A program made the translations under genes and the position numbers. Shown in pieces: positions 25,633 through 61,012 of a stretch of DNA of 64,000 nucleotides (within the stretch, counting starts at the first letter, position 1; each line of letters begins with the position of its first letter). The notes beneath the pieces were generated by a model, which worked only from the letters and a program-made list of their open reading frames with translations, was not told where the DNA came from and made no database searches. This DNA comes from Pyrinomonadaceae bacterium (GTDB lineage: Bacteria; Acidobacteriota; Blastocatellia; Pyrinomonadales; Pyrinomonadaceae), in contig JBKEBT010000150.1 in the NCBI GenBank assembly GCA_047973305.1, forward strand, positions 1,548 through 65,547. Reading direction: 5' to 3'.

Positions 25633-28600
25633 ATGAGCCGAATCGAAGAAAAAGTAAAAGATTTAATCGAGGTGCGAAGGCACGAACAGCTTTTGGATTT
25701 TTTGGCTGAACCCGAAAAAACCGTAAGTTCCTATTATTACACGCCTGTAACAGCGGAATTAATGGTCTCCTGGCTTGATGCTGTTTCCGCAGTGGAAAAA
25801 GATCGGGGCGCGTGCAAAGCACTTGCCGGCTATCGCGGCGTAGGAAAAAGTCATTTTCTTGCAACTTTCGGAGCGATGTTGGCGCACCCGGAAATGCGTG
25901 CGAAAGTTGATGATTCGCACGTTTTTTCGAGCCTTCATCATTTAAAACGAAGACATTACCCCGTTGCCTATGTTCGCAGAGGCACAAAACCTACTTTTAC
26001 GGAAGAACTTGTAAACGCGGTTTGTTTATCGATGGGTATTCCTTTCGAAGAAGCGCCGAGCAATATCGAAGCATTGATAACGCTTGCGGCGTCTTCCGCA
26101 AAGGAAATGCCCTTTGTGATTATTGTCGATACCGACCTCGAAAGATCTTCGCGCGTTGCGCGCGATGATGGCGCACTTCTTGGCGAACTGGCACGAATTT
26201 CACGCGGAAAAAATATCTTTATCGGTGTTGCTCTGGATGACGATATTACCGATGCAGATGGAATAAACGCCGCGATTGCAGATTCGTTCACAATCGATTA
26301 TTTAGATCAAGAACATCTTTACCAGATTGTAAACACATACGTTTTTCCAAAGCATCGGCATTCCGCACACCTTATTCAAGGGCTATATCGAGAGTTTCGA
26401 AACACACTTCCAAATTTTCGTTGGAGCGAACAAAGGTTTAATTCGCTTTACCCGTTGCACCCCTCCATTTTAGAGGTCGCACCGTTCGTAAGATTTTACG
26501 CACCAACATTTGGGCTGCTGGGCTTTGCCGCAAAGGCAGGCGAACGTATTTTGGGCAGACCCGCAAATTCCTTAATCTCGCTTGATGAAGTTTTTGACAA
26601 TGTCGAAGCTACGCTCAGAAAATCGCCGGATCTTAAAGAAAGCTTCACGGCATACGATTCCGCTTCGGCAGAAGTAATCGCAAAATTGCCGGTAATGCAG
26701 CGTTTACAGGCAAAACTGATTCTTAAAGCCTTGTTTATTTTGTCGCTTGATGGCGATGGAACCACGGCGGGCGAAATCAGCGAAGCGATGCTGATTTTTG
26801 ATGAAAATGACCCACAGCACAGCATTAGCGCCACAACCGAATTACTAACAAGTTTTGCTTCAAATATCGAAGGTGTTTGGGAAAAGGCTGAAGAAGGTCG
26901 CGAGACGCGTTTCGGAATTAAGATCGCAAGCAAAGATGATTTGAATTCCGCGTTGGATCAGGCAATCGCATCGGTTACGGATGCCGAAGTTTCACGGACA
27001 CTTTTGCGCGTTGCGAAAGATAAATTCAGCGATTGGGTATTGGATCCAAATAACCTTGCCGCACGAGCAAGCGAATTTACCGCAGAGTTTGTTTGGCGCG
27101 GTTCAAAAAGAAAAGCGGATATTGTTTGGGAATGGGGTAATAACTTGCCGGCTGCAAACAAGCCACGAGAAAAGCAACAAAAAGTAGACTTACATATTTC
27201 GATTGTTGCACCTACATTTGCCGCCACGGAAGGAAATCCGGCAGATTCAGGCATAAAATGGATTTCCGGTACACTTACAAAAGATGAAATCGAAACACTA
27301 AAGCGCCTTTCCGTGCTTTTGAGCGATTCAACATTAAAGAAGAAATTCGGCGAACAGGTTCGCGCCGCCGGTCACACAAATATAGTTGCGGCGGAAAAAA
27401 TTTGGGAGCGCATCTTCTTCAAAGCCGCAAAACTTCAAATAAGCAGTGAGATTCATCCTATACCCGAGAACATACGAACTCACGGCTTGTTTGGCGAAGT
27501 GCTAGAAGACATGTTCGATGGATATTTTGAGAAGAATTATCCGTCACATCCGCAATTTAACGGCACGCTTGATATGGAAAAAGTCGGGCTGCTGGTAAAC
27601 GATTTGTTTAGCGGCGTTCGCGGCGTTACACCAAACGTTCAAGAAGTTGCGCAAAAATTTGCATTTCCGCTTGGTCTTGTGCATGTACAAGATGGAAATT
27701 TGACACTTGTAAATGAAAAACAGTTGGTGTCCACGCCATTTCTGAAGCCGTTTGTCGAAAAAGTCGAAAACTTGGGTGAAGGAGTTCTTTCACTTCAGCA
27801 AGTGGATTCCGATTTGGGTGCGTCTCCCTACGGACTTTCACCCGAAGCGCAGTATTTGGTGCTTTCCGCCCTCGTTGCGCTTCGCAACATCGAATTTGTT
27901 ACATCGCGGGGTGACCGCATCTCCCATCGTTCACTTGATTTAAAGATTCTTTGGGATGACATAATTGGAATTGCGCGTCCCGAAGACGTGACCGCTGATT
28001 ACGAGAAGTTAAACCAGTGGGCACGCGCGCTTTTGCGTAACAATGAGATTCCGGAATTTAAGGAGTCAGAAGGAAGAGTTGAAGTAGTTTCCGCGCTTTC
28101 AGAGTGGCGAAATCGCTGGCTTGAATCCGGGATTCTTGAACGGTTCGCGGAGGTACCGGATGAAGGACTAAACCGCCGAATTTGGAATCTTTCGGTTACA
28201 ATCGAAAAATCTTTCGGTGTTGTTGCGCGCATTTTAAATCATATTGGTGAGGATTCATCCGTGCTTGAGGATGTTCTTCAACGAATTGCGGAAACGTTTT
28301 CAAACTCGTTTTCTGAACTGGATGAGCGTTATAAAGACTTGATGCGGTTTAAACGCTTTATCGAAGGTTTTGGTAGGCGAAGGCAAGTTTGGTCTTATCT
28401 TGCAGTGTCTGAAATTACGCACGATGAAGAAATTGAGAAGTACAGACAGCGTTTGCTTGCTTTAATTGACCAAGGCAATAACTATTCGGCAAATTATTCA
28501 AGCGATGAATTTGAAAGCACTTGGAACGCATTTCACGAGAAATTTACCGAACATTTCACAATTCGGCATGACGCAATAATGAATTCGCAGCAAATGAAGC

Positions 28601-29175
28601 GGGAATTTGAAGCGATTTTAAAAAGCGATGAGTGGTGGGAATTTGAATATCTTTCAAAACTTGCGATATTTAAGCCTATTCATTGGCGACGCGCGCAAAA
28701 AATATTGAAACGCTATCGCGAACTTGAGTGTAGCTTCGATGCAAAAGCAAATCTGAACACGCATCCGTTTTGTGCCTGTTCATTTAGCCTTTCGCGAATT
28801 TCTGAACTTGCAACTCTGGCAAAATCGCTTGAAACCACAATTCGCGCTGCACGCAGAAGCTACCGCAACACGCTTCGAACGTTGAAAGAGTTTATTGAAC
28901 AAAGGATTCAACAGCTTGTTGCGGCAGAACCCAAAAACGGTATGCAACAAGCTGCCAAGGAGCTTTTGACACATTTGAACAGCCCGAATTTGGCTCCGTT
29001 TACCGGCGACCAACTCGTAGTTTTGTATAACGCAATGTTGAATGATTCGACATCCACAACGGTTTCAATCGCGTTTCCCGGACAGGGAAATCTTTATACA
29101 TCCGAAGAACTTCGCTCACGCGTAAATGCGTGGATTGATGATCTTCCGGACTACCCTATAATGTTAAAACTCTGA
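25633..29175 (+). CDS. Large (1180 aa) stand-alone P-loop NTPase with a BrxC/PglY-like Walker A context
   Basis: Walker A reads ALAGYRGVGKSHFLATFG; a candidate Walker B reads MPFVIIVDTDLE. A long helical C-terminal region contains the Cys cluster ELECSF...HPFCACSF. The gene has its own upstream gap and a downstream terminator. Confidence 0.6.
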   Translation: MSRIEEKVKDLIEVRRHEQLLDFLAEPEKTVSSYYYTPVTAELMVSWLDAVSAVEKDRGACKALAGYRGVGKSHFLATFGAMLAHPEMRAKVDDSHVFSSLHHLKRRHYPVAYVRRGTKPTFTEELVNAVCLSMGIPFEEAPSNIEALITLAASSAKEMPFVIIVDTDLERSSRVARDDGALLGELARISRGKNIFIGVALDDDITDADGINAAIADSFTIDYLDQEHLYQIVNTYVFPKHRHSAHLIQGLYREFRNTLPNFRWSEQRFNSLYPLHPSILEVAPFVRFYAPTFGLLGFAAKAGERILGRPANSLISLDEVFDNVEATLRKSPDLKESFTAYDSASAEVIAKLPVMQRLQAKLILKALFILSLDGDGTTAGEISEAMLIFDENDPQHSISATTELLTSFASNIEGVWEKAEEGRETRFGIKIASKDDLNSALDQAIASVTDAEVSRTLLRVAKDKFSDWVLDPNNLAARASEFTAEFVWRGSKRKADIVWEWGNNLPAANKPREKQQKVDLHISIVAPTFAATEGNPADSGIKWISGTLTKDEIETLKRLSVLLSDSTLKKKFGEQVRAAGHTNIVAAEKIWERIFFKAAKLQISSEIHPIPENIRTHGLFGEVLEDMFDGYFEKNYPSHPQFNGTLDMEKVGLLVNDLFSGVRGVTPNVQEVAQKFAFPLGLVHVQDGNLTLVNEKQLVSTPFLKPFVEKVENLGEGVLSLQQVDSDLGASPYGLSPEAQYLVLSALVALRNIEFVTSRGDRISHRSLDLKILWDDIIGIARPEDVTADYEKLNQWARALLRNNEIPEFKESEGRVEVVSALSEWRNRWLESGILERFAEVPDEGLNRRIWNLSVTIEKSFGVVARILNHIGEDSSVLEDVLQRIAETFSNSFSELDERYKDLMRFKRFIEGFGRRRQVWSYLAVSEITHDEEIEKYRQRLLALIDQGNNYSANYSSDEFESTWNAFHEKFTEHFTIRHDAIMNSQQMKREFEAILKSDEWWEFEYLSKLAIFKPIHWRRAQKILKRYRELECSFDAKANLNTHPFCACSFSLSRISELATLAKSLETTIRAARRSYRNTLRTLKEFIEQRIQQLVAAEPKNGMQQAAKELLTHLNSPNLAPFTGDQLVVLYNAMLNDSTSTTVSIAFPGQGNLYTSEELRSRVNAWIDDLPDYPIMLKL

Positions 29176-35745: not shown

Positions 35746-36510
35746 CTATTTGGATAGATCTTTTGAGATTTTGTCAGCAGTTTTCACAACTAGATCAGTC
35801 ATTTCAGAAAACGTTTCTTTGGTAATTTGTTTTTTGTATCCAGCAACACTGATCGCGGCTACAACTCTGCCGGTTTGATCTGTTATTGGCGCACCAATAC
35901 AACGCGAGCCAATTGTTTCTTCTTCGTCGTCGAGCGCATAACCTTGAGTGCGCACAAGACGCAATTCGTCTTTTAGCTTTTTAGCTGAAACTATTGTGTT
36001 TTCATTATAGCGGGGAAGTCCGTATGTTAATATTCTATCAACAACTTCTTCTTCCCAATCACTCATAACCGCTTTGCCCACTGCAGTGCAGTGAATTCCC
36101 ATACGCATTCCAACCCAAGTTTTAACTTTTGGTGTGTATGGCGATTCAAGTTTTTCGATTATCACAACTTCGTTGCGTTCTTGCATCGCTAAATGAACGG
36201 TTAGATTGCACATTCGCAACAGAACCTTTAGGTGGGGCGACGCTATTTTGCGGATATTTAATCCACTCATTGCGCGATTTGCAAGCGTAAATATTTTCAT
36301 CCCGAACATATATCGTCCGGTTGCTTCGTTTCTATGCAAATAGCCAAGCCGTTCAAGGGTTAACAGTAATCCGAATGTTGAACTTTTTGGAAGCGAAAGG
36401 TTTCGGGTTAATTCTGAAAGGCTCAATCCGCTTTGCGATTTTGCAAGCTCTTCCATAATCAACATCGCTTTTTCGATTGCGGGAACCGATTTGGTTTTTG
36501 AATCTGACAT
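35746..36510 (-). CDS. IclR-family transcriptional regulator
   Basis: N-terminal winged HTH (AIEKAMLIMEELAKSQSGLSLSELTRNLSLPKSSTFGLLLTLERLGYL) and a C-terminal IclR effector domain. It is divergent from the rfaH-like gene. I chose the ATG at 36510; the track starts at a TTG at 36525. Confidence 0.85.
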   Translation of the reverse strand: MSDSKTKSVPAIEKAMLIMEELAKSQSGLSLSELTRNLSLPKSSTFGLLLTLERLGYLHRNEATGRYMFGMKIFTLANRAMSGLNIRKIASPHLKVLLRMCNLTVHLAMQERNEVVIIEKLESPYTPKVKTWVGMRMGIHCTAVGKAVMSDWEEEVVDRILTYGLPRYNENTIVSAKKLKDELRLVRTQGYALDDEEETIGSRCIGAPITDQTGRVVAAISVAGYKKQITKETFSEMTDLVVKTADKISKDLSK

Positions 36511-36618
36511 AATTAATCTAAACAACAGATTATTCTTGCTTTTGTTTAACAGTTTAAACTATTACCTGTCAATAGTCGCCAAAAATCTACCTAAGTACAA
36601 GACTAAACCAAATACGCA

Positions 36619-36652
36619 GTTCAGCCGGCTGAACAATAAAGAGCAATTGCTC
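36619..36652. promoter_or_regulatory. Two perfect palindromes in the IclR/rfaH-like divergent region (candidate operators)
   Basis: GTTCAGCCGGCTGAAC (36619..36634) is a 16-bp perfect palindrome and GAGCAATTGCTC (36641..36652) is a 12-bp perfect palindrome. A related GTTCAACGGGCTGAAC occurs at 43193..43208. Confidence 0.5.
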
Positions 36653-36724
36653 AAAAAAACGGTTTCATTGAACTCCTGTGCAAATTATACTTACGCAACT
36701 AGAAAATCGTTAAAAACATAATTT

Positions 36725-37234
36725 ATGGAAATTAATGCGGACTTGAATTGGTATGCTATTCGAACCAAATCGAATCAAGAACGAATAGCTGAGCTAAATT
36801 TGAATCGGATGGGCTTGGAAGTTTTTAACCCAGAGCTTAAATCAGAAAAAGAAGTTTTCGGCGTTACAAAAACCGTATTGAGTCCCTTATTCCCAAACTA
36901 CTTATTTGCAAAGTTCAACCCTTCAAAGTATCTACACTTAATTCAATATGCACGCGGAGTTCGGCAGGTATTGCGAACAGGAATAGCATTGTTGCCGGTT
37001 GAAGAACAGATTATAAAGGAAATTAGGCGTCGGCTTGTTTCCGGCGAATATGTTCAAGCTGAAAAACTATCAAGTGGCAGCTCTGTCGCAATAAAACAGG
37101 GCGCATTTAACGGGTTAAACGCAATCTTTGATCGCGAAACTAGCGATCGCAAACGGGTTGTGCTGCTGTTGGATATCATGGGTGTAAATGCAGAAGTAAT
37201 TCTGGATAAACGCGCGGTAAAAACCGCGGTCTAA
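36725..37234 (+). CDS. rfaH: RfaH-type specialised NusG paralog (NGN plus KOW)
   Basis: The 169-aa protein aligns by eye along its full length with E. coli RfaH as I recall it. Matching segments are NWYAIRTKSNQERIAELNLNR, SPLFPNYLFAKFNP (the RfaH signature, where NusG has FFPGYVLV), ARGVRQVLRTG, and the KOW segment VAIKQGAFNGLNAIFDRETSDRKRVVLLLDIMG. Confidence 0.75.
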   Translation: MEINADLNWYAIRTKSNQERIAELNLNRMGLEVFNPELKSEKEVFGVTKTVLSPLFPNYLFAKFNPSKYLHLIQYARGVRQVLRTGIALLPVEEQIIKEIRRRLVSGEYVQAEKLSSGSSVAIKQGAFNGLNAIFDRETSDRKRVVLLLDIMGVNAEVILDKRAVKTAV

Positions 37235-37268
37235 AAGTTCTCGCACAAAAATCAAAAGAGTTTTAATC

Positions 37269-37313
37269 GGAAAAGTTCGCCGAAATGGCGGTAGTCTGTC
37301 ATTCAATCGAATC
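37269..37313 (+). promoter_or_regulatory. ops-like element (GGCGGTAGTCTG, 37287..37298) inside a 45-nt conserved leader block, copy A
   Basis: The + strand reads GGAAAA-N6-CGAAATGGCGGTAGtctGTcATTcaatCGAATC. The core matches the ops consensus GGCGGTAGnnTG. The same block, with identical spacing, is at 43397..43441. Confidence 0.65.
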
Positions 37314-37413
37314 CAAAATTATTACGAACAAGTTTGTGCTTTCAGCTTGGTTTTAGTTCGTGCGTAAAATAAAATGAATTATCAAACTTCCATAAAATAT
37401 TCTACAAAAATAG

Positions 37414-38178
37414 ATGAAATTAAAAGATAAAGTTGCCATTGTTACCGGCGGCGGAACCGGAATCGGAAAAGGAATAAGCCGATGTTTGGCAAGTGCCGGC
37501 GCGAAAATTGTAATTGCACAGCCAACGCTCGAAAAAGCAAACGCAGCTGCCGAAGAATTTCGTAAAGAAGGGTTTGAAGTTTTGCCGATGAGCGTAGATA
37601 TAAGTTCGCGAAAAACGGTAAAAGCAATGGTTGCGGAAACGCTGGACAAATTCGGAAGAATCGACATTTTGGTAAACAACGGCGCCCTGACCGGATCAAA
37701 AGCAACCGCACCTTTTCTTGAAATTACTGACGAACTTTTGGATAGAACGGTTGATGTGAATCTCAAGGGAACGGTGATTGTTTCGCAAGAAGTAGCCCGC
37801 AACATGATTGAACACGGTGGTTCTATTATCAATATTTCATCAGTCGGCGCTTTCGCTGCTCAAGAAGGAGCATCAATTTACTGCGCAACAAAATCGGCAC
37901 TCTTGGGTTTAACGAAAACTATGGCATTGGAACTTGCACCGCAAAATATACGTGTAAATGCAATTGCGCCGGGAGACATATTAACTGAAACCAGCGAACG
38001 CATTGTTGAAGAGAAAATGGAAGATGGATATTCAAATAAGTATCTGCGCAAGATTCCGCTAGACCGACGCGGCAAACCTTCCGAAATCGGTAAAACCGCC
38101 GTGTTTTTAGCGTCTGACGATGCCTCTTACATCACGGGTGAAACAATTGTGGTTGATGGCGGTTTCTTGATTTATTGA
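37414..38178 (+). CDS. Short-chain dehydrogenase/reductase (SDR)
   Basis: Motifs TGGGTGIGKG, NNGA and the catalytic YCATKSA (YxxxK). Confidence 0.9.
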   Translation: MKLKDKVAIVTGGGTGIGKGISRCLASAGAKIVIAQPTLEKANAAAEEFRKEGFEVLPMSVDISSRKTVKAMVAETLDKFGRIDILVNNGALTGSKATAPFLEITDELLDRTVDVNLKGTVIVSQEVARNMIEHGGSIINISSVGAFAAQEGASIYCATKSALLGLTKTMALELAPQNIRVNAIAPGDILTETSERIVEEKMEDGYSNKYLRKIPLDRRGKPSEIGKTAVFLASDDASYITGETIVVDGGFLIY

Positions 38179-38400
38179 TTTTGAGCTGGGCGATGTTTTT
38201 CGCAACGCAAATGATTTCAACCATTAGTATTGAAACCGTGGATTAAAGATTTGAATGGGTTGGAAGACAATTGAGAGCCAAGCCGAACGATTAGTAACGA
38301 GAAACGCACGACGATATTTTCCCGAGGCGTTTTGAAAGTTTTGAACCAAATCATAAAAGTGGATGGAGGATAAACTGCAATAAAAGCAGCCTACAAAGTT

Positions 38401-39309
38401 ATGAAGTTGAAAGGAATGGTTCCGCCAATCGGAACACCGATAAATGAAGACGAAACTGTTGATGAAAATGGCTTACGCAAGCTTGTAAACTACTTAATAG
38501 ACGGCGGCGTCGATGGAGTTTTTGTCAATGGTTCAATGGGTTGTTCCGCGCTTTTGACTGATGCAGAACAGTTTCGCGCCATTGAAATTGTTGCGGATGA
38601 AGTAAACGGACGTGTTCCAGTAGTGGCAGGAATTTCAGATAGCAGCACGAAAAGGGTAATCGAAAAAACCAAAATTGTGGAACGCTTCAGGGTTGATTTC
38701 TTAACCGCGGTTGTGCCGTACTTTTTCAAATTAACACAACAGCAAGGAAAGCGATTTTTTCAGGAAGTTGCAGCCGCTGCGCAAAAGCCTGTCTTGATCT
38801 ACAACAACCCGTATTTAACTCCAATGGATTTTGAAGTTTCCACGTTACTAGAACTTTCTGAAGAACCTAATATAGTGGGCGTTAAAGATTCAAATCAAGA
38901 TTTCAACCGCTTAACAGGGTTGCTGGAAGCATTTCGTGGCAAAGATGAATTTACAATTATGCTCGGAACTGAACTCTTGATTCCGCAGGGCTTGATGATG
39001 GGTGCTGATGGTGCAATAGGCGGTGCGCACAACATTGCGCCGGCATTCGCTGCCGAGCTTTATAAGGCACATCTGGCTGGCGATTACGAAACGGCGTATG
39101 CGCGCAGCAACGACCTAGCGCAAATTTGCAAAATATTTCAGTATGGTTCAATTTGGGGAGGGTTTGAAGCGGCTTTGCAATTGCTGGGAATTTGCGAAAA
39201 GGTGGTTTTTGAGCCATACGCTTCTGCAAATGCCGACGAAAAACTGAAGGTTGAAGAGATTTTAAACGGTTGCGGTTTGCTGCAACAGCCTGTAGGTTCG
39301 CCAATTTAG
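38401..39309 (+). CDS. DapA/NanA-family class I aldolase (dihydrodipicolinate synthase family)
   Basis: Has the family pattern: GVFVNGSMGCSALL where GxxGE is expected, YNNP for the Tyr motif, and VGVKDS for the Schiff-base Lys. Confidence 0.8.
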   Translation: MKLKGMVPPIGTPINEDETVDENGLRKLVNYLIDGGVDGVFVNGSMGCSALLTDAEQFRAIEIVADEVNGRVPVVAGISDSSTKRVIEKTKIVERFRVDFLTAVVPYFFKLTQQQGKRFFQEVAAAAQKPVLIYNNPYLTPMDFEVSTLLELSEEPNIVGVKDSNQDFNRLTGLLEAFRGKDEFTIMLGTELLIPQGLMMGADGAIGGAHNIAPAFAAELYKAHLAGDYETAYARSNDLAQICKIFQYGSIWGGFEAALQLLGICEKVVFEPYASANADEKLKVEEILNGCGLLQQPVGSPI

Positions 39310-39313
39310 CTAA

Positions 39314-40066
39314 ATGAAAATCACTGATGAAATTTATTTGGTTGGAAGTTTGCAGCTTGGAATTTCGGGGCAATGGGATAGCCATGTTTACTTGATAAAG
39401 GGAACTGAGGGCTTGATATTGATTGATTCGGGCGGCGGAACTGATTGCGAAATGATATTCGATAATATTCGGCGTGAAGGGTTTGATCCGAATGAGATAA
39501 AATCAATTTTATTGACCCATTTCCATTTTGATCATTCATGTGGAGCCGCTGAAATCAGGGATAAAACCGGATGCGAAGTTTATATTTCTACCAAGTCAAG
39601 AGATTTGCTTGAAACCGGAACGGCAAAAGAAGCGGGACTTGAGCAGGCGATTGAACAAGGGGTTTACCCGGAGGGGTTTAAGTTTCGGAATTGCGTTGTA
39701 GATAAAGCATTGAATGACGGTGATGTGTTTGAAACAGCCGGGTTGAAATTTGAAACAATCGGCGTTGAAGGACATAGCGCGGATTCGATTTGTTATTTGG
39801 TTGAGCTAAATGGCAAGAAAAATTTATTTTCAGGCGACGTTCTTTTTTACGGCGGAATAATCGGCTTAATAAATGCACCGGGTTCCACTATGGATGGCTA
39901 TAGAAGGGATCTTAAAAAGCTTGCCAATTTGCATATTGAGGGACTTTTTCCGGGACATTTTTTGTTTACGATAAATGGCGGGCAGAAACATATAGATGCC
40001 GCGATTGAAATGTGTGAAAAAGGAGTGATTCCGCAAACCGTTGGGCAATACGGTGTAGTGTTTTAG
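39314..40066 (+). CDS. MBL-fold metallo-hydrolase
   Basis: HFHFDH metal-binding motif, followed downstream by GHSADS and a further His. Confidence 0.8.
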   Translation: MKITDEIYLVGSLQLGISGQWDSHVYLIKGTEGLILIDSGGGTDCEMIFDNIRREGFDPNEIKSILLTHFHFDHSCGAAEIRDKTGCEVYISTKSRDLLETGTAKEAGLEQAIEQGVYPEGFKFRNCVVDKALNDGDVFETAGLKFETIGVEGHSADSICYLVELNGKKNLFSGDVLFYGGIIGLINAPGSTMDGYRRDLKKLANLHIEGLFPGHFLFTINGGQKHIDAAIEMCEKGVIPQTVGQYGVVF

Positions 40067-40068
40067 AA

Positions 40069-41064
40069 ATGACTGTTTCAATTAAGGTTGACGAGTTCAG
40101 TTTTGAGCGAGTATCGGAAATCGGCAAACACCGATTGTTCTTGGAAATTGCTTCTGCCGGCGTTGGTGAACAAATCGGACTTCCCTTGTTGATTGCAAAT
40201 GGTGCTAGAACCGGTAAAACTCTCGTAGTTTTTGCGGGGGTTCACGGCGATGAACTGGAAGGCATTCAAGCGGTTCATGAGGTTTTTAATAGCCTTGACC
40301 CTGAAAGTTTGTGCGGAAGATTTATCGCCGTTCCGACCGCGAATCTTCCTGCAGTTCGGGCGATGCAGCGAAACAGTCCCATAGATTTATTGAATTTGGC
40401 GCGCGTATTTCCGGGCAACAAACACGGCAGTGTAACCGAGCGCATTGCCTTTTATCTTTCCACAATAATACTTCCGCAAGCCGATTTTTTTATCGATCTG
40501 CATAGTTCAGGGATAACTTCGTTGATGCCCCTAATGGTGGGTTACGATGCCGGTGAAACAATTGCGGGAACCGAATCAAAATCTGCGGCTTTGAAATTTG
40601 GAACGCCTGTAATGTGGGGACACGCTGAAATCGGACAAGGACGTTCGATAACTTCAGCCGGCGAACAGGGAATTCCGTGGCTTTATGTTGAATCACCAAG
40701 CGGGGGAAAAGTTTCTTCTGATTATTTGCCGTTTTACAGCAATGGTTTGTTCAACTTGCTAAAGCATCTGCATATTATTTCGGGTGAAATAGCCGAAAGC
40801 ACGCCTAAATACAGCCTGCTTGGCTCAGGTGATACGGATAGTGCACAAGTTGTAAACACTTACGGATTTTTTGTGTCGAAAGTAAAATTGCTTGATTTTG
40901 TTAAACGCGGAACGCTTATAGCTGAGGTTCGAAACGTTTACGGCGAAACGATTGAACAAGTTGTTGCCAAGAATGCGGGTTGCGTTTCAATGTTGCGAGC
41001 TGCGACGGTTGTTGAACCGGGCACGTTGGTCTGTTTGGTAGTTGAAGCAGAATTTGTAAATTAA
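40069..41064 (+). CDS. Succinylglutamate desuccinylase/aspartoacylase (AstE/AspA, M14-like) family deacylase
   Basis: GVHGDELEG zinc-binding motif, then DLHS later in the sequence. The 331-aa length is typical. Confidence 0.75.
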   Translation: MTVSIKVDEFSFERVSEIGKHRLFLEIASAGVGEQIGLPLLIANGARTGKTLVVFAGVHGDELEGIQAVHEVFNSLDPESLCGRFIAVPTANLPAVRAMQRNSPIDLLNLARVFPGNKHGSVTERIAFYLSTIILPQADFFIDLHSSGITSLMPLMVGYDAGETIAGTESKSAALKFGTPVMWGHAEIGQGRSITSAGEQGIPWLYVESPSGGKVSSDYLPFYSNGLFNLLKHLHIISGEIAESTPKYSLLGSGDTDSAQVVNTYGFFVSKVKLLDFVKRGTLIAEVRNVYGETIEQVVAKNAGCVSMLRAATVVEPGTLVCLVVEAEFVN

Positions 41065-41124
41065 CAAAGTTCATTCCAAATAAATCAAATAAAATTTAAG
41101 GTATTTAGTCTACCGGAGTAAAAA

Positions 41125-42594
41125 ATGGGTTTTTCAACTTTTGATTGGGTAGTAGTAGGAATCTATCTGTTGGCAAGCGTTTTGATTGGCGCATCATTTT
41201 TTAAGAAGCACGAAAACGCAAAAGATTATTTGCTGGCAGGTCGAAACATGCATTGGTTTCCGATAGCAATTTCGATTATTGCCACGGATTTAAGTGCGCT
41301 TTCTTATATCGGCGTTCCGGCATTGGTTTATAAAACCGACCTAAAATATATGATCACTGCAATCATGATGCCGTTGCAAATGCTTTTGGTTGTGGTTGTA
41401 TTTGTTCCACTTCTTTATCGGCTGAATATTTACACGGTTTATGGATATTTGGAACGCAGATTTAATAAGACTACAAGATTATATGCAGCTTTGTTGTTTA
41501 TGGGGGGGCGCGGCGCATGGCTTGCAACCATGATTTTTGCAACATCGGTTGTATTAACCGAAATTACGGGAATCGATACAGTTACAGCCATTATTATCTG
41601 CGGCTTGGCAACAACTGCCTACACATTCTTAGGAGGAATGGAAGCGGTTGTTTGGACTGATTTTATGCAGTTCTTTGTGTTGGTTGGCGGTGCAATAGCC
41701 ATATTGCTTTTTATACTTTACGGGTTTGGATGGGATTTTGGTCAAATTTGGACAATTGCATCGAACACCGGTCACACAAAATTTGTTGATTTTTCGTTTG
41801 ATTTTACCAAGGCGTTCACGTTTTGGGGGTTATTGTTTGGCTCTTTGATTTATCAGATTTCGACTTATGGAACCGATCAGCTCAATGTTCAGCGATATTT
41901 CGCGACCAAAGATTTGAAAAGCACTATCTGGGCAACGCTGGGTTCGGCAGTAATCTTGTTTCCGATTTTGATTTTGCTTTATGTTATCGGTCTTGGTTTG
42001 GTGGCATATTATCATTCGCATCCGGAGTTGCAAGCTACTTTGGGAAATCCGGACAGGGTAATGCCGCATTTTACATCCAATGTACTTCCAATGGGGCTTC
42101 GCGGTTTGGTTATTGCCGGAATCTTTGCGGCAACCATGTCCAGCATGTCTGCGGGAATAAACTCGTTGTCTACAAGCACAATGAAAGATTTGCTTGAACA
42201 AATCAGTCCAAAATTGATTAAGAACGAGTTGTTTTGGGCGCGCTCGTTGTGTTTGGGATGGGGAGTGCTTGTAACAATTATTGCGCTTGTGATGATCAGC
42301 GGACAACTTACGATTATTGAAAGATTTAATTCAATATACCAGCTTTTTGCGGGACCATTGGCGGGCATCTTCCTGTTGGGAATTCTTTCAAAAAGAACTT
42401 CGGCAGTTCCGGTGTTGCTCGGCTCGGTTGTTGGATTTGCAACGGCGATATATGTTCAGCAAACAACAAACATCCATTGGCTTTGGTTTGCTCCAATCGG
42501 TTTTGCGGTAACATATTTTATTGGGTACGTTGGAAGTTTCATAATTTCGAGTTCAAACTCTGCAGAACCTGAAGCCACTCAAAACGCTAGTTAG
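41125..42594 (+). CDS. Sodium:solute symporter (SSS) family transporter
   Basis: 489-aa protein with about 13 TM helices. The segments YLLAGRNMHWFPIAISIIATDLSALSYIG and GGMEAVVWTDFMQ are typical of SSS transporters. Confidence 0.85.
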   Translation: MGFSTFDWVVVGIYLLASVLIGASFFKKHENAKDYLLAGRNMHWFPIAISIIATDLSALSYIGVPALVYKTDLKYMITAIMMPLQMLLVVVVFVPLLYRLNIYTVYGYLERRFNKTTRLYAALLFMGGRGAWLATMIFATSVVLTEITGIDTVTAIIICGLATTAYTFLGGMEAVVWTDFMQFFVLVGGAIAILLFILYGFGWDFGQIWTIASNTGHTKFVDFSFDFTKAFTFWGLLFGSLIYQISTYGTDQLNVQRYFATKDLKSTIWATLGSAVILFPILILLYVIGLGLVAYYHSHPELQATLGNPDRVMPHFTSNVLPMGLRGLVIAGIFAATMSSMSAGINSLSTSTMKDLLEQISPKLIKNELFWARSLCLGWGVLVTIIALVMISGQLTIIERFNSIYQLFAGPLAGIFLLGILSKRTSAVPVLLGSVVGFATAIYVQQTTNIHWLWFAPIGFAVTYFIGYVGSFIISSSNSAEPEATQNAS

Positions 42595-42738
42595 GTAGGT
42601 GTTTTGCGGTTTTTTGTTCGAACAACAGCAAGAAGAGTGTTTTATTTGGTGGTAGTTGGATTTGTAAGTAAAAAACAGAACAGACAATTCCTTGGGCAAA
42701 AATACCGAATAGATTTCGGATTCTATTATTTGATTAAT

Positions 42739-43110
42739 ATGATTGAACATACAGTAGTTGGTGAACTGAAGCTTCCTTTTTCGCATGCGGTTCGCGTTGA
42801 TAATTTTGTATTCATTTCCGGACAGGCTTCGGTTGATTTATCAAGCGGTGAAATTATTTCAGGCACACTTGCTGAAGAAGTTGGGCAATCCATGCAAAAC
42901 TTACGAACGATTCTTGAGAACGCCGGTGCGCAGTGGGAAGATATTGTTAAAGTTGGATGTTTCGTACGCCGAAATGAAGATTTGGCTGAATTCAATGTGC
43001 TTTACCGTCAGTATTTCTGCGAGCCATTTCCGGCGCGTACAACCGTTACCAATTGTTTGCCACCCAGCTTGCTTTTTGAAATCGATTGCGTTGCGGTAAT
43101 TAAGAAATAA
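42739..43110 (+). CDS. RidA/YjgF/Endoribonuclease L-PSP family protein
   Basis: Motifs FVFISGQ, NLRTILENAGAQWEDIVKV and ARTTV..LP....EIDCVA. I placed the start at the ATG at 42739; the upstream part of ORF 42604 looks non-coding. Confidence 0.85.
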   Translation: MIEHTVVGELKLPFSHAVRVDNFVFISGQASVDLSSGEIISGTLAEEVGQSMQNLRTILENAGAQWEDIVKVGCFVRRNEDLAEFNVLYRQYFCEPFPARTTVTNCLPPSLLFEIDCVAVIKK

Positions 43111-43192
43111 GCGTGTCGATTTCGGCAATCCAACCGTTTGTCAGTCAACAAAAGCCTTTCTTCAGTTAAAGAACACAGTTTTTTACAGTTTG

Positions 43193-43208
43193 GTTCAACG
43201 GGCTGAAC
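43193..43208. promoter_or_regulatory. GTTCA-N6-TGAAC inverted repeat, second copy
   Basis: GTTCAACGGGCTGAAC followed by CAAAG. Compare GTTCAGCCGGCTGAAC followed by CAATAAAG at 36619. Confidence 0.45.
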
Positions 43209-43333
43209 AAAGTGCCGGAAAAGTACAAATTGGGTATTTTAATTGTTTAATAATTAACCTATTGTTACCGAGATAAAATCAAAAAGAAGTCGGAAGACTT
43301 AGAAATAGCAAATAAGATGATTCGAAGTTGTTT

Positions 43334-43412
43334 ATTTTCGAATCGAAAATCCTCCTTTAGAAAATGGGTTACCTTAATTCCAACCTATTCGATTTTGGAA
43401 AATAAAATCGAA
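43334..43412. promoter_or_regulatory. Two AT-rich TCGA-centred palindromes in the TonB-receptor leader
   Basis: ATTTTCGA-A-TCGAAAAT at 43334..43350 has 8-bp arms. TTCGATTTT-N7-AAAATCGAA at 43388..43412 has 9-bp arms and abuts the ops-like block. Confidence 0.4.
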
Positions 43413-43441
43413 ATGGCGGTAGCCCGTAATTATTCCGAATC
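43397..43441 (+). promoter_or_regulatory. ops-like element (GGCGGTAGCCCG, 43415..43426) inside the 45-nt conserved leader block, copy B
   Basis: GGAAAA-N6-CGAAATGGCGGTAGcccGTaATTattcCGAATC. It is identical to copy A at 32 of 45 positions, including a 14-nt perfect run. The ops core ends 112 nt before the receptor ATG; in copy A the distance is 116 nt. Confidence 0.6.
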
Positions 43442-43537
43442 ACCTACCTCAAATTGTAGATTGACTAAGCGCTTTTAAGAAATTTGCGCGAGTTGATTTT
43501 ATGTCGAGTTGTCAAAATAAAATAGGAGCGTTCAAAC

Positions 43538-46500
43538 ATGAAAAATGTATTTAGGCTGATCTTTTTTTCACTTTGTCTTATTGGCGTGCATACAGCATTT
43601 GGGCAAACTACCAATCAAGGAACGATTGTTGGAACAGTTAAAGACCAAATGGGCGATGCAATCCCTGCAGTGGTTGTATCAATCACAAACAATGAAACCG
43701 GTGCAGGCAGAACTGCCACAACAGATGAGCACGGAAACTATCGGGTTGATTTTTTGACACCCGGGGTATATCGAATATTGGCGGAGCTTTCAGGATTTAA
43801 GAAAGCCGAATTATCACAGATAACTGTGAATGTAAGCGATATTACCAGAGCCGATATTAAAATGGAGATTGGGCAAATTTCCGAACAAGTAACGGTTGAT
43901 AACGATACTGCGGGAATGGTAAATACAGAAAACGCCACATTTGGTGAAGTAATAAACGAGAACATCATTCAAAATATGCCGTTAAATGGAAGGGAATTTG
44001 TTGAGCTTTCAGGATTGGTTCCCGGGGTTTCCGATGGAAGCGGTAAAACGGGTTCAATTTCCAGCAAAGGCGTAGCGACCGCGGTAGGCGGTTCCCGTTC
44101 ATCATACAACTCATTTTATGTTGATGGGGCAGATTCAACCGATAACTATTTCGGGCAGTTGGTTTCATCACCGGCATTGGATGCAGTTAAGGAATTTCGC
44201 GTTGAAACTAGTTTGTATTCCGCACGCTTCGGACGCGCCGGCGGTGGCGTAATAAATGTAGTCACAAAGTCCGGCACAAATGATTTTCATGGTTCACTCT
44301 ACGAATTTCATCGAAGCGAAGATTTTGATGCAATGCCGTATTTCTATACCGGTCCAAAAGAAGATAGACCCACGTACCTGCAAAATCAATATGGCGGCAC
44401 TATAGGCGGTCCGGTTTACCTTCCAACTTTGGGTTTTGGCGGAAAGAAATATTACAGTGGCAAAAACAGAACATTTTTCTTTTTTAGCACGGAGTTTTAT
44501 CGTCAAAAGAAGCCCGGACAGTTCATTGAAGGTATTGCGCCTACGGCGTTGGAACGCGTAGGAAATTTCACGGAAACTATCAATCCGTACACGAATGCGC
44601 CCGTTACACTCGTTTATCCAAATGTTTACAAAGTTACATCAACGTGTCCCGATCCAACGCAACCACCGGTAACTTCGGGCACTCCTTCAGCCGGACAGCA
44701 CTGTCAGCAGATGCCGATTACCAACAAAATTTTACCGGCAAACTTAATCAATCCTTTGGGTCAGAAGTTGATGGATTTAATTCCGGAACCGAATTATGAT
44801 GATCCGATATTCAACCTACGAGTCTTTAAGAGCGGCAGACATACAGCTGACAAATATCTCATAAAACTCGACCACAATTTCAAAGACGGCAGCAATCTAA
44901 ACGGAAGCTACAATTACGGAATTTACGACAATACGAACCCGGGGATAACTGATTTTGCCGCAACCAATTCATACGATTACGGAAAAACTTTGGCAATTGG
45001 CTTTACCAAGCCGATAAATCGAAATTTGGTTTCGGACACAAAGTTTAATTATACGTGGAGCGACAGCGGACTAAGACAATTGGCTTCGGACAAAAACTAC
45101 GCTGAAGAATATGGTTTTTGGGTTGGAGGACAAAAGCCCGATATAAACGGATTTCCAAGAGTACAACTCTACACCGTTGGAAACAGGTATATGACATTGG
45201 GCTCATCAGGTCCTAACATGCGAAGCAACAAAACAATGTATGTACGCGAAGACCTGATCTATATCAAAGGCAACCACACAATTTCATTGGGTGCCGATTT
45301 TAAGGCGCAGGATTATGGCTGGATTTACGATGTTGCAATGTTTGGCGCGTATTACATTGGAATTCTTGAAAATGGAGTTACATCCGGAAACCTTTACTAC
45401 AGAGTTACGGGGCATACATTTGGAAACTTGCTAACAGGAATTTCTTCTTATTCATCTTATAGTTACGGCGATTCCAGATATGCTAGATCGCAGCGCAACA
45501 GCATTGGTACATACTTGCAGGATGATTGGAAAGTTTCAGACCGTTTAACGATGAACTTGGGGCTCAGATACGATTTTGAACCGCCTTTCAGTAGCAAAGA
45601 TGGCAAGTTTATGACGCTTAATTGGGAAAATGGCATGCCGCTTTATTCCAAACAAACCAATTCTTCATTGCTGCAAGATTTAAAATTTAATTATCAAACG
45701 GGTGGTCCAAAAACTCCGTTTGATGCAAACAAACTAAATTTTGCTCCACGAGTTGGCTTCGCACTCAACATTTTTAATGACAATTCAACTGTGCTTCGCG
45801 GCGGATTCGGGCTGGTTTACAATAGCGAAAGCTTTTACACCACGGGTTACGGATCGTTCGTTGCGCCGTTCGGCGGTACTTTTATTTGGAGAACGCGTGC
45901 AGCGTTGCAGCCCGATTTGGTAAATCACTTGATTCCGATGGATCAAGAACCGTATCAGCTGCCGCTTACTGAGCCAACTTCTCCGGGCAGCACTTGGGTA
46001 AACCCCAGATACTATCCGACAGGATATGTTCAGAATTGGAATCTCGGCATATCGCGAGAAATAGGCTGGGGAGTTGTTGCTGAAACATCTTATGTTGGTT
46101 CGAAGGGAACCAACCTAAACGGACTTGGTTCATTGAGAAGTTACGATCCTGCACTATTGGCAAAAGCCAAAGAAAATAACCCCGAATGGGTTACAACCGG
46201 CGGAAGTAACGTAGTAAGCCTTAGATTAAAGGGTTTTAATTCTAGTTATCATTCTTTACAGGCAAAGCTCAGGAAACGGTTCCGAAATGGAATAAGCTTT
46301 TTAGGTGCGTATACATGGTCACATACAATGGCTGAAGCATCTAACGATCTTGTAGATGAAAATCTTGATTCGTTGGATACAGAAACGCAAACCTATGTGT
46401 ATAAACGAATAGATACAAATGCCGATTTCGATATCCGCCACCGCTTTACCTTTTCCGGCACATACGATTTACCGTTTGGTAAGGGGCAGCATTTTGGATC

Positions 46501-46957
46501 TGATTGGAATTCATTTGTAAATACATTGTTTGGAAACTGGCGTCTAAATATGATTACCAAAATGCAATCGGGTCAGCCGTTCAGCGTTCGTGGTACAAAT
46601 GGTCGCCCGCCGAACAGACTCTGTGACGGAAACCTTCCGGCAAGCGAAAGAACCGTTGAAAGATGGTTTGATACAAGTTGTTTTGTTGATTCGGCTTCAA
46701 GCACCATAAACGGTAATGCATCGCCAAACATCATTTGGGGACCAAATTTGATTGCATTCGATTTTGGTCTTCATAAAGAACTAAAGTTTGGTGATAATGT
46801 TAAATTGCAGCTTCGCGGTGAAGCCTTTAACGCTTTTAACAGAGTTAACCTAATAGGACCAAGTCTTAATTACTTTGTTAATGCGGATTCAGGCGCAACG
46901 CTTACTCGGCAGCGTGACAACAGAAGTCTTCAATTTGGTTTAAGACTTATTTTTTAA
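43538..46957 (+). CDS. TonB-dependent receptor with N-terminal carboxypeptidase-regulatory-like domain
   Basis: Signal peptide, then GTIVGTVKDQMGDAIPAVVVSITNNETG (CarboxypepD_reg-like), a plug region, a 1139-aa beta-barrel and a C-terminal aromatic residue (LRLIF). An AGGAG Shine-Dalgarno lies 8 nt upstream. Confidence 0.88.
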   Translation: MKNVFRLIFFSLCLIGVHTAFGQTTNQGTIVGTVKDQMGDAIPAVVVSITNNETGAGRTATTDEHGNYRVDFLTPGVYRILAELSGFKKAELSQITVNVSDITRADIKMEIGQISEQVTVDNDTAGMVNTENATFGEVINENIIQNMPLNGREFVELSGLVPGVSDGSGKTGSISSKGVATAVGGSRSSYNSFYVDGADSTDNYFGQLVSSPALDAVKEFRVETSLYSARFGRAGGGVINVVTKSGTNDFHGSLYEFHRSEDFDAMPYFYTGPKEDRPTYLQNQYGGTIGGPVYLPTLGFGGKKYYSGKNRTFFFFSTEFYRQKKPGQFIEGIAPTALERVGNFTETINPYTNAPVTLVYPNVYKVTSTCPDPTQPPVTSGTPSAGQHCQQMPITNKILPANLINPLGQKLMDLIPEPNYDDPIFNLRVFKSGRHTADKYLIKLDHNFKDGSNLNGSYNYGIYDNTNPGITDFAATNSYDYGKTLAIGFTKPINRNLVSDTKFNYTWSDSGLRQLASDKNYAEEYGFWVGGQKPDINGFPRVQLYTVGNRYMTLGSSGPNMRSNKTMYVREDLIYIKGNHTISLGADFKAQDYGWIYDVAMFGAYYIGILENGVTSGNLYYRVTGHTFGNLLTGISSYSSYSYGDSRYARSQRNSIGTYLQDDWKVSDRLTMNLGLRYDFEPPFSSKDGKFMTLNWENGMPLYSKQTNSSLLQDLKFNYQTGGPKTPFDANKLNFAPRVGFALNIFNDNSTVLRGGFGLVYNSESFYTTGYGSFVAPFGGTFIWRTRAALQPDLVNHLIPMDQEPYQLPLTEPTSPGSTWVNPRYYPTGYVQNWNLGISREIGWGVVAETSYVGSKGTNLNGLGSLRSYDPALLAKAKENNPEWVTTGGSNVVSLRLKGFNSSYHSLQAKLRKRFRNGISFLGAYTWSHTMAEASNDLVDENLDSLDTETQTYVYKRIDTNADFDIRHRFTFSGTYDLPFGKGQHFGSDWNSFVNTLFGNWRLNMITKMQSGQPFSVRGTNGRPPNRLCDGNLPASERTVERWFDTSCFVDSASSTINGNASPNIIWGPNLIAFDFGLHKELKFGDNVKLQLRGEAFNAFNRVNLIGPSLNYFVNADSGATLTRQRDNRSLQFGLRLIF

Positions 46958-46972
46958 ACTCAATTGAATAAC

Positions 46973-46993
46973 AAGCGAAGCTTTTTCGCTTTT
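46973..46993 (+). terminator. Hairpin with T-tract directly after the TonB receptor gene
   Basis: Stem AAGCGAA / TTCGCTT, 5-nt loop, then TT. A second, longer hairpin lies at 47023..47061: AAAGGATTTC / GAAATCCTTT followed by TT. Confidence 0.55.
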
Positions 46994-47129
46994 CAAACTG
47001 TAGCCGACGCCGCCACTTCGAGAAAGGATTTCAAACGGAAAGAAAGCCGGAAATCCTTTTTCGCAAGGCGGTTTCAGTTGCTTAAACTTGATTTCGAAAA
47101 CATATCCAAATTAGTAAGCAAGTTTCAAA

Positions 47130-48665: not shown

Positions 48666-48740
48666 TTGCGATATAAACTGCGATTCACGATTTTTAAGAA
48701 GGTTCAACAGAATTTAAGCTATTTATAGGAGCAAATTAGA

Positions 48741-50615: not shown

Positions 50616-50650
50616 CCGTTGCAAACTTTTTCGAAGTTTATAGTTTTTAG

Positions 50651-53455: not shown

Positions 53456-53513
53456 TGTTATAAGCGTCGTTTTGGCGATAGGTTTGATGCAGAAGCGAAA
53501 ATCGAATTTTATT

Positions 53514-54617: not shown

Positions 54618-54806
54618 TGTGAATTTTTATCCTGTGATTTTGTTGTTAAGGCTTCCTGTAATACGTTAAGAAATTATACGTGCAGCCTAAGATTTTGCAT
54701 GAAACCCGTTGTGTTTCTTAATTTACTTTAAGCCGCTTGATGAGCCTTAAGTATTCACAAATAGAGATTCTATTTTCAGAAAGCGAATTAAAGAAGAAGT
54801 ATATTG

Positions 54807-55940: not shown

Positions 55941-55945
55941 AAAAA

Positions 55946-57019: not shown

Positions 57020-57020
57020 T

Positions 57021-58478: not shown

Positions 58479-58591
58479 TTAGTTCGGCAAAATAAGTTGT
58501 TTTATTTAATGAAGTTGAGAAACCGGTGCGGAATCGGTGCGCTTTTAAATCGAAGTCAATTATAAACCAAAATCATAAGGAGTAAATTAAA

Positions 58592-59938: not shown

Positions 59939-59973
59939 TTTGCTGATTCGGCAAGCTATACCTATTTAATGAT

Positions 59974-60876: not shown

Positions 60877-60904
60877 AAAGAAACTTCCAATATGATTAAA
60901 AAAG

Positions 60905-60928
60905 CGGCGTCTATCGCCGTTTTTTTTT
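60905..60928. terminator. Short GC hairpin with T9 tract, bidirectional between convergent genes
   Basis: AAAAAAG-CGGCG-TCTAT-CGCCG-TTTTTTTTT. Confidence 0.6.
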
Positions 60929-61012
60929 GTTCAGGAGGAAATTTCGGCTGACCCAATATCTTATTGTTCCGCGGAAAAGTTTCTTGAAAGCAGATATGTT
61001 GATGCACCAAAA

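Follow-up and report, generated by a model that had tools for sequence, protein, structure and literature searches.

The subject of this study is a 64-kb stretch of contig JBKEBT010000150.1, referred to as the window, which belongs to a metagenome-assembled genome (MAG) of the Pyrinomonadaceae, phylum Acidobacteriota. The window encodes a 169-amino-acid protein of the NusG family, here called the paralog, and shortly downstream of its gene lies a 12-nt element that resembles ops, the element of the E. coli factor RfaH. An earlier inspection of the sequence without database searches (the sequence-only reading) had placed the open reading frame at 36725..37234 and the 12-mer at 37287..37298, 53 nt after the stop codon, and both were found exactly there. 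The identical protein at NCBI is also named as coming from a Pyrinomonadaceae MAG.

The genes and elements of the locus are compiled in Table 1. The paralog gene is followed by genes for an SDR, a DapA-like (DHDPS-family) lyase, an MBL hydrolase, a deacylase, an SSS symporter and RidA, the set named in the sequence-only reading and recovered as such by Pfam. Together with these genes (operon 1) it forms a co-directional unit of 6.4 kb (unit 1, 36725..43110). The pair of paralog gene and element was thus correctly described as heading catabolic and transport genes in an organism that is not an enterobacterium. Beyond the earlier reading we found a second ops-like site upstream of a further operon (operon 2), palindromes shared by the two units, and a divergent gene for an IclR-family regulator. 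The GC content across the locus is 41-43%, the same as in the remaining window according to the composition profile; consequently, there is no sign of a recent island.

Table 1. Genes and sequence elements of the locus (window positions)
Feature	Position	Strand	Remarks
IclR-family transcriptional regulator	35746..36525	-	Divergent from paralog gene; Pfam HTH_IclR and IclR_C, E 3.5e-45
Palindrome GTTCAGCCGGCTGAACAA, candidate operator 1	36619..36636	none	Between IclR gene and paralog gene
RfaH-like specialised NusG paralog, 169 amino acids	36725..37234	+	ATG start, TAA stop at 37232..37234; Pfam, NCBIfam, phmmer, AlphaFold2, Foldseek
33-nt conserved element, copy 1	37281..37313	+	Contains ops-like site 1
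ops-like site 1, GGCGGTAGTCTG	37287..37298	+	Starts 53 nt past the last base of the paralog stop codon
Operon 1	37414..43110	+	Pfam, NCBIfam
SDR	37414..38178	+	Operon 1
DHDPS-family lyase	38401..39309	+	Operon 1
MBL hydrolase	39314..40066	+	Operon 1
AstE/AspA-type deacylase	40069..41064	+	Operon 1
SSS symporter	41125..42594	+	Operon 1
RidA	42604..43110	+	Operon 1; likely true start ATG 42739
Palindrome GTTCAACGGGCTGAACAA, candidate operator 2	43193..43210	none	About 220 nt upstream of ops-like site 2
33-nt conserved element, copy 2	43409..43441	+	Contains ops-like site 2
ops-like site 2, GGCGGTAGCCCG	43415..43426	+	112 nt before the TonB-receptor start codon
Operon 2	43538..60876	+	17.3 kb, all genes on one strand; Pfam; gene order and gaps

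The class of the paralog within the NusG family was assigned by hidden Markov model (HMM) scores. Pfam recognised a NusG NGN domain (E 1.5e-14). The highest scores were obtained with the two RfaH models, TIGR01955 (115.1 bits, cut-off 144.5) and NF006534 (94.3 bits, cut-off 124), followed by the models for UpxY (76.6 bits, cut-off 100), LoaP (46.3 bits, cut-off 125) and housekeeping NusG (TIGR00922; 37.8 bits, cut-off 135.7). With this ranking the HMM check agreed with the earlier proposal that the protein is of RfaH type rather than a general NusG. Positions 1-156 of the 159 positions of the RfaH model align to the paralog, which corresponds to an NGN plus KOW-length architecture. In a phmmer search of the PDB sequences E. 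coli RfaH was the top match (E 3e-14, residues 8-153 on 3-147), and the sole NusG match was to Aquifex entries (E 0.002). Residues K15, R28 and R77 of the paralog stand opposite K10, R23 and R73 of RfaH in the phmmer alignment, as had been seen by eye, and the alignment blocks drawn by eye proved to be the segments aligned by HMMER. The equivalents of RfaH I93, F130 and R138 are retained as I97, F135 and R144. The N-terminal domain was modelled by AlphaFold2 (AF2) with a predicted local distance difference test score (pLDDT) of 86-96. The top Foldseek matches were E. coli RfaH structures; with the model from a shallow alignment, autoinhibited RfaH was the first but weak match (TM score about 0.5).

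All 95 of the 95 homologs scanned match the RfaH model at the best E-value of the five families (best of all, 3.4e-36), and many homologs carry the JGI label "transcriptional antiterminator RfaH". The clade at 50% identity or more is small, with 2 representatives among 1.84 billion sequences at E <= 1e-30 and 903 at 1e-10. The neighbours of the paralog gene are the IclR and SDR genes, not secE or rplK. Judged by model ranking, PDB matches and residue alignment, the paralog is RfaH-like and clearly not a housekeeping NusG, and it is not an RfaH equivalog by the NCBI threshold.

Site 1 agrees with the E. coli ops sequence GGCGGTAGnnTG at 10 of the 10 specified positions. Site 2 is situated 6.1 kb from site 1, between the RidA gene and the gene for a 1139-amino-acid TonB-dependent receptor, which are 427 nt apart, and it retains GGCGGTAG and the pyrimidine-G at positions 11-12. 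The exact 14-mer CGAAATGGCGGTAG is common to both sites, and a 33-nt repeat with 79% identity spans them. The 8-mer GGCGGTAG alone is not rare (2 copies in 64 kb, 0.67 expected), and the broader pattern GGCGGNAGYNYR matches only these two places in the window. We defined a leader position as intergenic DNA up to 300 nt upstream of a gene, on the strand of that gene. Such positions make up 3.5% of the position-strand pairs, and both copies of GGCGGTAG lie in 5' leaders on the coding strand, the chance of which is about 0.0013. The paralog gene, upstream of site 1, lies 180 nt before the first target gene. The second site at a distance of 6.1 kb suggests an additional trans action of the paralog.

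The same palindrome, GTTCAnCnGGCTGAACAA, stands before both units, at 36619 and at 43193; the first copy abuts the divergent IclR gene. The two copies form an 18-nt repeat with 89% identity. The pattern GTTCAN6TGAAC occurs three times in the window, compared with 0.10 expected. Presumably, the IclR protein is the regulator of both units at the level of initiation. The third match to the pattern, GTTCACGGCGATGAAC at 40240..40255, lies inside the AstE-type deacylase gene and is maybe due to chance or an internal operator.

Conservation was assessed in orthologous loci. Three loci with orthologs of 64-66% protein identity (L001, L002, L005) retain the divergent IclR gene, the palindrome 126-180 nt upstream, and the paralog. 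In all three, CACCGAAATGGCGGTAGTCTG follows 74-75 nt past the stop codon of the paralog gene, and in L001 and L005 CCGAAATGGCGGTAGTCTG is retained at +74/+75 nt from the stop codon. The remaining intergenic DNA of the orthologous loci has diverged, in contrast to the ops element, which is conserved. The divergent arrangement of IclR and paralog genes was found in L001, L002, L003, L005, L006 and L007, the same palindrome as in the window ahead of the paralog gene in L001-L005 and L007-L009, and gene sets related to operon 1 follow the paralog in L001 and L007. More distant Acidobacteriota loci also have the IclR gene, the paralog gene and ops in this order, and what comes next differs: a TonB receptor in L006, an SDR in L007, enolase-superfamily enzymes in L011 and L013. 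Among the Nitrospirota an ops-like element precedes ABC-2 exporter genes or polysaccharide genes of the asparagine-synthase type.

For the second site we scanned metagenomes with CGAAATGGCGGTAGYCYG. Many matches in high-GC coding sequence were regarded as chance, and only low-GC intergenic matches with homologous neighbours were kept. Seven low-GC contigs carry the element 112-139 nt before orthologous TonB-receptor genes, whose products are 58-62% identical; these loci include L094, L118, L147, L158, L169 and L180. The perfect palindrome GGTTCAGTATACTGAACC is situated 182-186 nt upstream of ops in the seven TonB-receptor loci, and by eye a candidate promoter TTTACA-17-TAnnGT can be discerned between palindrome and ops in these metagenomic orthologs. 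No paralog gene was found within 6.5-7 kb upstream of the TonB-receptor gene in L094 and L158, the contigs reaching that far. As ops is conserved after the paralog in the orthologs and before the metagenomic TonB-receptor genes, both sites of the window are phylogenetically footprinted.

To quantify the association across phyla, counts were based on 82 non-redundant loci that carry a homolog gene; Acidobacteriota, Nitrospirota, Verrucomicrobiota, Thermodesulfobacteriota and others are represented. Near the homolog gene (up to 250 nt upstream or 350 nt downstream) exact GGCGGTAG was found 18 times on the same strand (0.374/kb) and not once on the opposite strand. In the rest of the 82 loci it was found 16 times on the same strand (0.014/kb) and 18 times on the opposite strand (0.016/kb). 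The enrichment beside homolog genes is thus about 25-fold and always on the strand of the gene, so that the leader and strand bias proposed in the sequence-only reading is strong next to homologous genes in other genomes. Every sequence-level prediction of that reading which was put to the test was borne out.

We then compared 47 unique ops-like sites which had been picked on positions 1-8 only. At positions 9-12, which played no part in the selection, C was found at position 9 in 43 sites and a pyrimidine at position 10 in 41; position 11 is a pyrimidine in all 47 (T in 40) and position 12 a purine in all 47 (G in 34). The consensus letters at positions 11-12 match the TG dinucleotide of ops, which induces pausing (Zuber et al., PMC5995543). 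The flank directly upstream of the element is conserved as well, with the consensus C-A-C-C-G-G-A-A-T at positions -9 to -1 (37278..37286 and 43406..43414 in the window).

In E. coli, T6 of ops flips into a pocket of RfaH formed by H20, R23, Q24 and R73, and the side chains of K10, H20, R23 and R73 contact the DNA (Zuber et al., PMC5995543). Among the homologs the base at position 6 varies together with the residues aligned to this pocket. Where position 6 is T, R23 and R73 are both retained in 13 of 18 cases. With C at this position both are retained in none of 18; R23 is replaced by Q in at least four separate clades, and otherwise R73 is replaced by Q, N, H, T or A. With A, both are retained in none of nine, and N23 is present in seven and Q24 in eight of the nine. 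The contrast in R23 plus R73 gives a Fisher p of 7e-6 for T versus C and of 6e-4 for T versus A, neither value being corrected for phylogeny. On a neighbour-joining tree of L001-L085 and the window several separate T-to-C switches are seen, one of them within the clade of the window: L008 and L009 have C6 with H and Q at positions 20 and 23, compared with T6 and N and R in the window, L001, L005, L006 and L007. Both sites of the window have T6, and the pocket of the paralog is of the T type (N25, R28, M29, R77). The relation between the base at position 6 and residues 20, 23, 24 and 73 looks like a recognition code, and we regard this co-variation as the strongest sequence-level argument that these proteins would read ops as E. 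coli RfaH does.

The placement of the element varies in some lineages. In L018, L020, L022, L028, L035 and L063, which represent some Nitrospirota and other lineages, and in the metagenomic loci L091, L116, L136 and L153, an ops-like element is located before the paralog gene; L020 has one ops-like site on each side of the gene. A factor with ops upstream of its own gene would promote its own transcript. Two or more RfaH-like paralogs in one genome, each with a nearby ops-like site, were also found, as with L018 and L036 on contig SWDM01000013.1 and L064 and L084 in one MAG, which suggests several parallel regulons.

From these comparisons we consider it probable that the 169-amino-acid protein is an RfaH-like specialised NusG paralog and that the two GGCGGTAG(Y)C(Y)G elements are putative sites at which it loads. 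The best reading of the locus appears to be an ops-recruited processivity factor which has been co-opted to an IclR-gated catabolic and uptake regulon. The sequence data show the protein class, the two sites, their leader placement, their conservation and the co-variation of protein and DNA; pausing, loading, antitermination and the role of IclR are inferred only. The proposed course of events is as follows. The IclR-family regulator, bound at the shared palindromes, would gate initiation at two promoters. Transcript 1 would encode the paralog and then pass site 1 into the 6-kb catabolic and transport operon, and promoter 2 would drive a leader with site 2 and the 17-kb operon for the TonB receptor, hydrolases and catabolic enzymes. 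At ops RNA polymerase would pause at the pyrimidine of position 11, followed by G at position 12, and the N-terminal domain of the paralog would read the exposed non-template strand. The base at position 6 would enter the pocket lined by R28 and R77, and K15 would contact the loop. The bound factor would displace housekeeping NusG and thereby suppress pausing and Rho-type premature termination, with the outcome that promoter-distal genes are expressed.

We considered four alternatives to this interpretation. That the ops match merely lies beside an unrelated NusG-family gene by coincidence has a negligible probability. The bare 8-mer with its 2 observed copies and 0.67 expected would permit it, but the leader and strand placement, the 33-nt repeat, the conservation in orthologs and the 25-fold enrichment all speak against it, and as far as sequence evidence can do so the comparative data refute it. 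It is very unlikely that the element belongs to another DNA-binding regulator or is part of a promoter unrelated to the paralog. TGGCGG...TG loosely resembles the sigma-54 type -24/-12 sequence TGGCAC-N5-TTGC, and A/T-rich -10-like hexamers are present 11-19 nt upstream of site 1 and of its orthologs. On inspection by eye, however, the GG-N10-GC spacing is absent and TC stands in place of GC, and the sigma-54-like reading was rejected on spacing. Moreover, the element occurs beside RfaH-like genes across several phyla with an absolute strand bias and co-varies with residues of the paralog, and the palindromes are better operator candidates.

The other two alternatives concern the way in which the element would be used, and we regard both as improbable. 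In one of them the element acts as RNA, the paralog or another factor binding a small leader hairpin as described for LoaP. In 80% of cells the flank at -8 to -5 is able to pair with positions 3-6 of ops; the pair -8:6 shows AU, UA and GC types, its covariation score was reached in none of 500 shuffles, and the window sites differ at -8 and -7 with the pairing potential retained. Yet the only variable pair is broken in 18 of the 47 sequences and the variation follows clades, so the covariation is ambiguous and a stem between flank and ops was not adopted. Base for base, including the pause dinucleotide, the element is the E. coli ops, which is read as DNA; its position 6 co-varies with residues aligned to the DNA base pocket of RfaH; the LoaP model gives only 46 bits; and the minimum-free-energy folds of the window leaders are not significant (z-scores of -1.4 and -1.5). 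According to the other alternative, the paralog acts purely in cis by loading onto the polymerase that has transcribed its gene, reading no sequence, and GGCGGTAG..YG is a mere conserved pause site. The position of the paralog gene immediately upstream of site 1 would fit, as would the loss of E48 and the report that cis-encoded RfaH homologs beside long operons are monomorphic or mixed by AF2 (PMC13015549). The second element does not: it is 6.1 kb away, behind its own palindrome in a 427-nt intergenic region, and is conserved before TonB-receptor genes even where the contig has no paralog gene over the 6.5-7 kb upstream. In addition, the base at position 6 tracks the pocket residues, which a pure pause signal would not need; the invariance of G4-G8 follows from the selection rule.

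Several results weigh against an RfaH-like factor loading at the two sites. The paralog stays under both RfaH equivalog cut-offs (115.1 versus 144.5 and 94.3 versus 124 bits). Two of the five T6-pocket or contact residues are changed, H20 to N25 and Q24 to M29, and the autoinhibition residue E48 is replaced by S53. In E. coli RfaH the autoinhibited, alpha-helical C-terminal domain refolds, and E48, I93 and F130 are involved together with a salt bridge from E48 to R138. The C-terminal domain was predicted by AF2 with low confidence and inconsistently between two runs (pLDDT 37-61): a deep alignment resulted in a mixed domain (pLDDT 37-61), a shallow one in helices at 129-136 and 142-151 (pLDDT 41-53). 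Scans of 36400..43700 and 43100..61100 revealed no convincing promoter of the sigma-70 type before either site; the promoter and intrinsic-terminator matches in these regions were at or under the shuffle expectation and none was convincingly placed. Folding of the window and five orthologs revealed neither a leader terminator nor a conserved RNA structure after ops. For site 1, transcription would occur by read-through from the paralog gene if a terminator is absent between them, and none was found. When Rfam was scanned at E <= 10, no match to JUMPstart or another relevant family was obtained.

For RfaH and other specialised NusG paralogs, the targets described so far are adhesins, capsules, lipopolysaccharide (LPS), toxins, conjugation machinery and antibiotics. 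The closest likeness is to E. coli RfaH with its ops (part of JUMPStart). Both proteins are two-domain members of the NusG family, the paralog having its best score with the RfaH models and possessing the equivalents of K10, R23, R73, I93, F130 and R138; in both systems the 12-nt element is found in the 5' leaders of long operons on the coding strand, with no difference at any specified position and with a pyrimidine-G at positions 11-12. In contrast to the proteobacterial RfaH, the paralog belongs to the Acidobacteriota, stays under the equivalog cut-off and has N, M and S in place of H20, Q24 and E48. Its gene opens one of the target units as first cistron, whereas the E. coli rfaH gene is monocistronic and unlinked. 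The targets in E. coli are LPS, capsule, haemolysin and conjugation genes; here they would be genes for nutrient uptake and catabolism under an IclR-type regulator. The upstream flank CCGRAAT and the missing Rfam JUMPstart match also set the element apart.

UpxY of Bacteroides is likewise a locus-specific NusG paralog encoded by the first gene of the operon it promotes, and its model scored second best (76.6 bits). The paralog is nevertheless under the cut-off of 100, its gene is followed by an SDR gene with no UpxZ-like gene after it, and the recruiting element is an ops of the RfaH type, whereas UpxY targets capsule biosynthesis operons. LoaP of Firmicutes and Actinobacteria is also a specialised paralog beside the gene cluster it promotes; the paralog reaches 46 bits against a LoaP cut-off of 125. 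What LoaP binds is a hairpin of the leader RNA, and its action is on intrinsic terminators. Here, unlike for LoaP, no conserved hairpin or terminator follows ops. PrfaH of IncX plasmids (PMC11880322) is an RfaH-like factor whose own promoter is followed by an ops-like site, but it serves plasmid conjugation genes in Enterobacteriaceae; its structure 9ik0 is among the fold matches of the paralog, with about 16% identity in the structural alignment.

Cis-encoded RfaH homologs, "monomorphic" or "mixed alpha/beta" and linked to long virulence-type operons, have been described in a preprint (Tabilo-Agurto et al. 2026, PMC13015549). They resemble the paralog in being encoded in or beside a long operon, and its low-confidence mixed AF2 C-terminal domain is similar to their mixed class (median C-terminal pLDDT about 45-49). 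Their neighbours are mostly LPS, secretion or virulence genes in a proteobacterial "Genomic Cluster", from which the paralog locus differs. The conserved ops and the second, unlinked ops found here argue for a sequence-specific and partly trans action. In a wider survey, 23 of 117 phyla had matches to the RfaH model, and Proteobacteria accounted for about 95% of the matches, with mostly cell-envelope genes as neighbours, and the recruitment mode was known only for E. coli RfaH (Wang et al. 2020).

In full-text literature searches we found no paper linking RfaH to Acidobacteria, TonB or catabolic operons, and no described RfaH/ops regulon for nutrient catabolism, in accordance with the sequence-only reading. 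As a mechanism this is of a known type. What appears to be undescribed in the searchable literature is the phylum and target class, the coupling to IclR, the factor-first layout with a remote second ops, and the cross-phylum position-6 code. Taken together, the data would allow a broader view, for which we judge the case to be evenly balanced. Ops recruitment of RfaH-like factors would not be a proteobacterial speciality but old and phylum-spanning, with a simple and evolvable code in which the flipped base at position 6 is matched to RfaH positions 20, 23, 24 and 73 (R23 and R73 for T, Q23 or an altered residue 73 for C, N23 and Q24 for A). In Blastocatellia-type Acidobacteriota the system would have left the operons for cell-envelope biosynthesis and come to serve IclR-gated regulons of TonB-receptor and catabolic genes, whose first cistron encodes the factor.

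The locus would represent an elongation-level switch wired to nutrient uptake and catabolism and layered on an ordinary IclR-type initiation switch, in a phylum that is abundant in soil and poorly studied. Long TonB-receptor and hydrolase operons are central to the carbon turnover of Acidobacteriota, and a dedicated processivity factor, if true, would be a new regulatory layer for them. As natural ops variants are paired with pocket variants across phyla, the choice of operons by NusG paralogs becomes testable by swaps. For metagenomic members of the regulon a rule can be given, GGCGGNAG-Y-N-Y-R in a leader on the coding strand.

The gene content of the two operons can be read as serving the uptake and breakdown of a putative substrate that is acylated and contains an amino-sugar acid or peptide. 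Operon 2 begins with the genes for the TonB-dependent receptor, a 511-amino-acid protein without assigned function, a GHL10-like protein, an FG-GAP repeat protein and an SGNH esterase, and continues with a BNR sialidase-like protein, a pyridoxal phosphate (PLP) enzyme, an MlrC/M81 peptidase, a class-III aminotransferase and a member of the FAA-hydrolase family; a convergent gene (61013..62467) follows. The RidA reading frame as listed begins at a TTG, 45 codons ahead of the Pfam match, and a likely start at ATG 42739 would give 123 amino acids. Shine-Dalgarno-like motifs are scarce throughout the window (4-5 of 26 genes, inside and outside both operons), and the genome appears to be poor in them. 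A lack of Shine-Dalgarno sequences as a mark of RfaH-type targets therefore gave no discrimination, since such motifs are rare upstream of nearly all genes of the window.

Two further hairpins were noticed at the paralog loci. In the window a GC-rich hairpin, CGCGG-UAAAAA-CCGCG, covers the last codons and the stop codon of the paralog gene (37207..37236); no T-tract follows, and it is not conserved in L001 or L005. In L001 a very stable perfect hairpin (9276..9320, z -8.2), absent from the window, is located between ops and the first downstream gene and could be a leader terminator or a repeat element. Finally, unrelated to the paralog and the ops-like sites, an 1180-amino-acid protein with DUF6079 and a weak AAA_16 match is encoded at 25633..29175 of the window.

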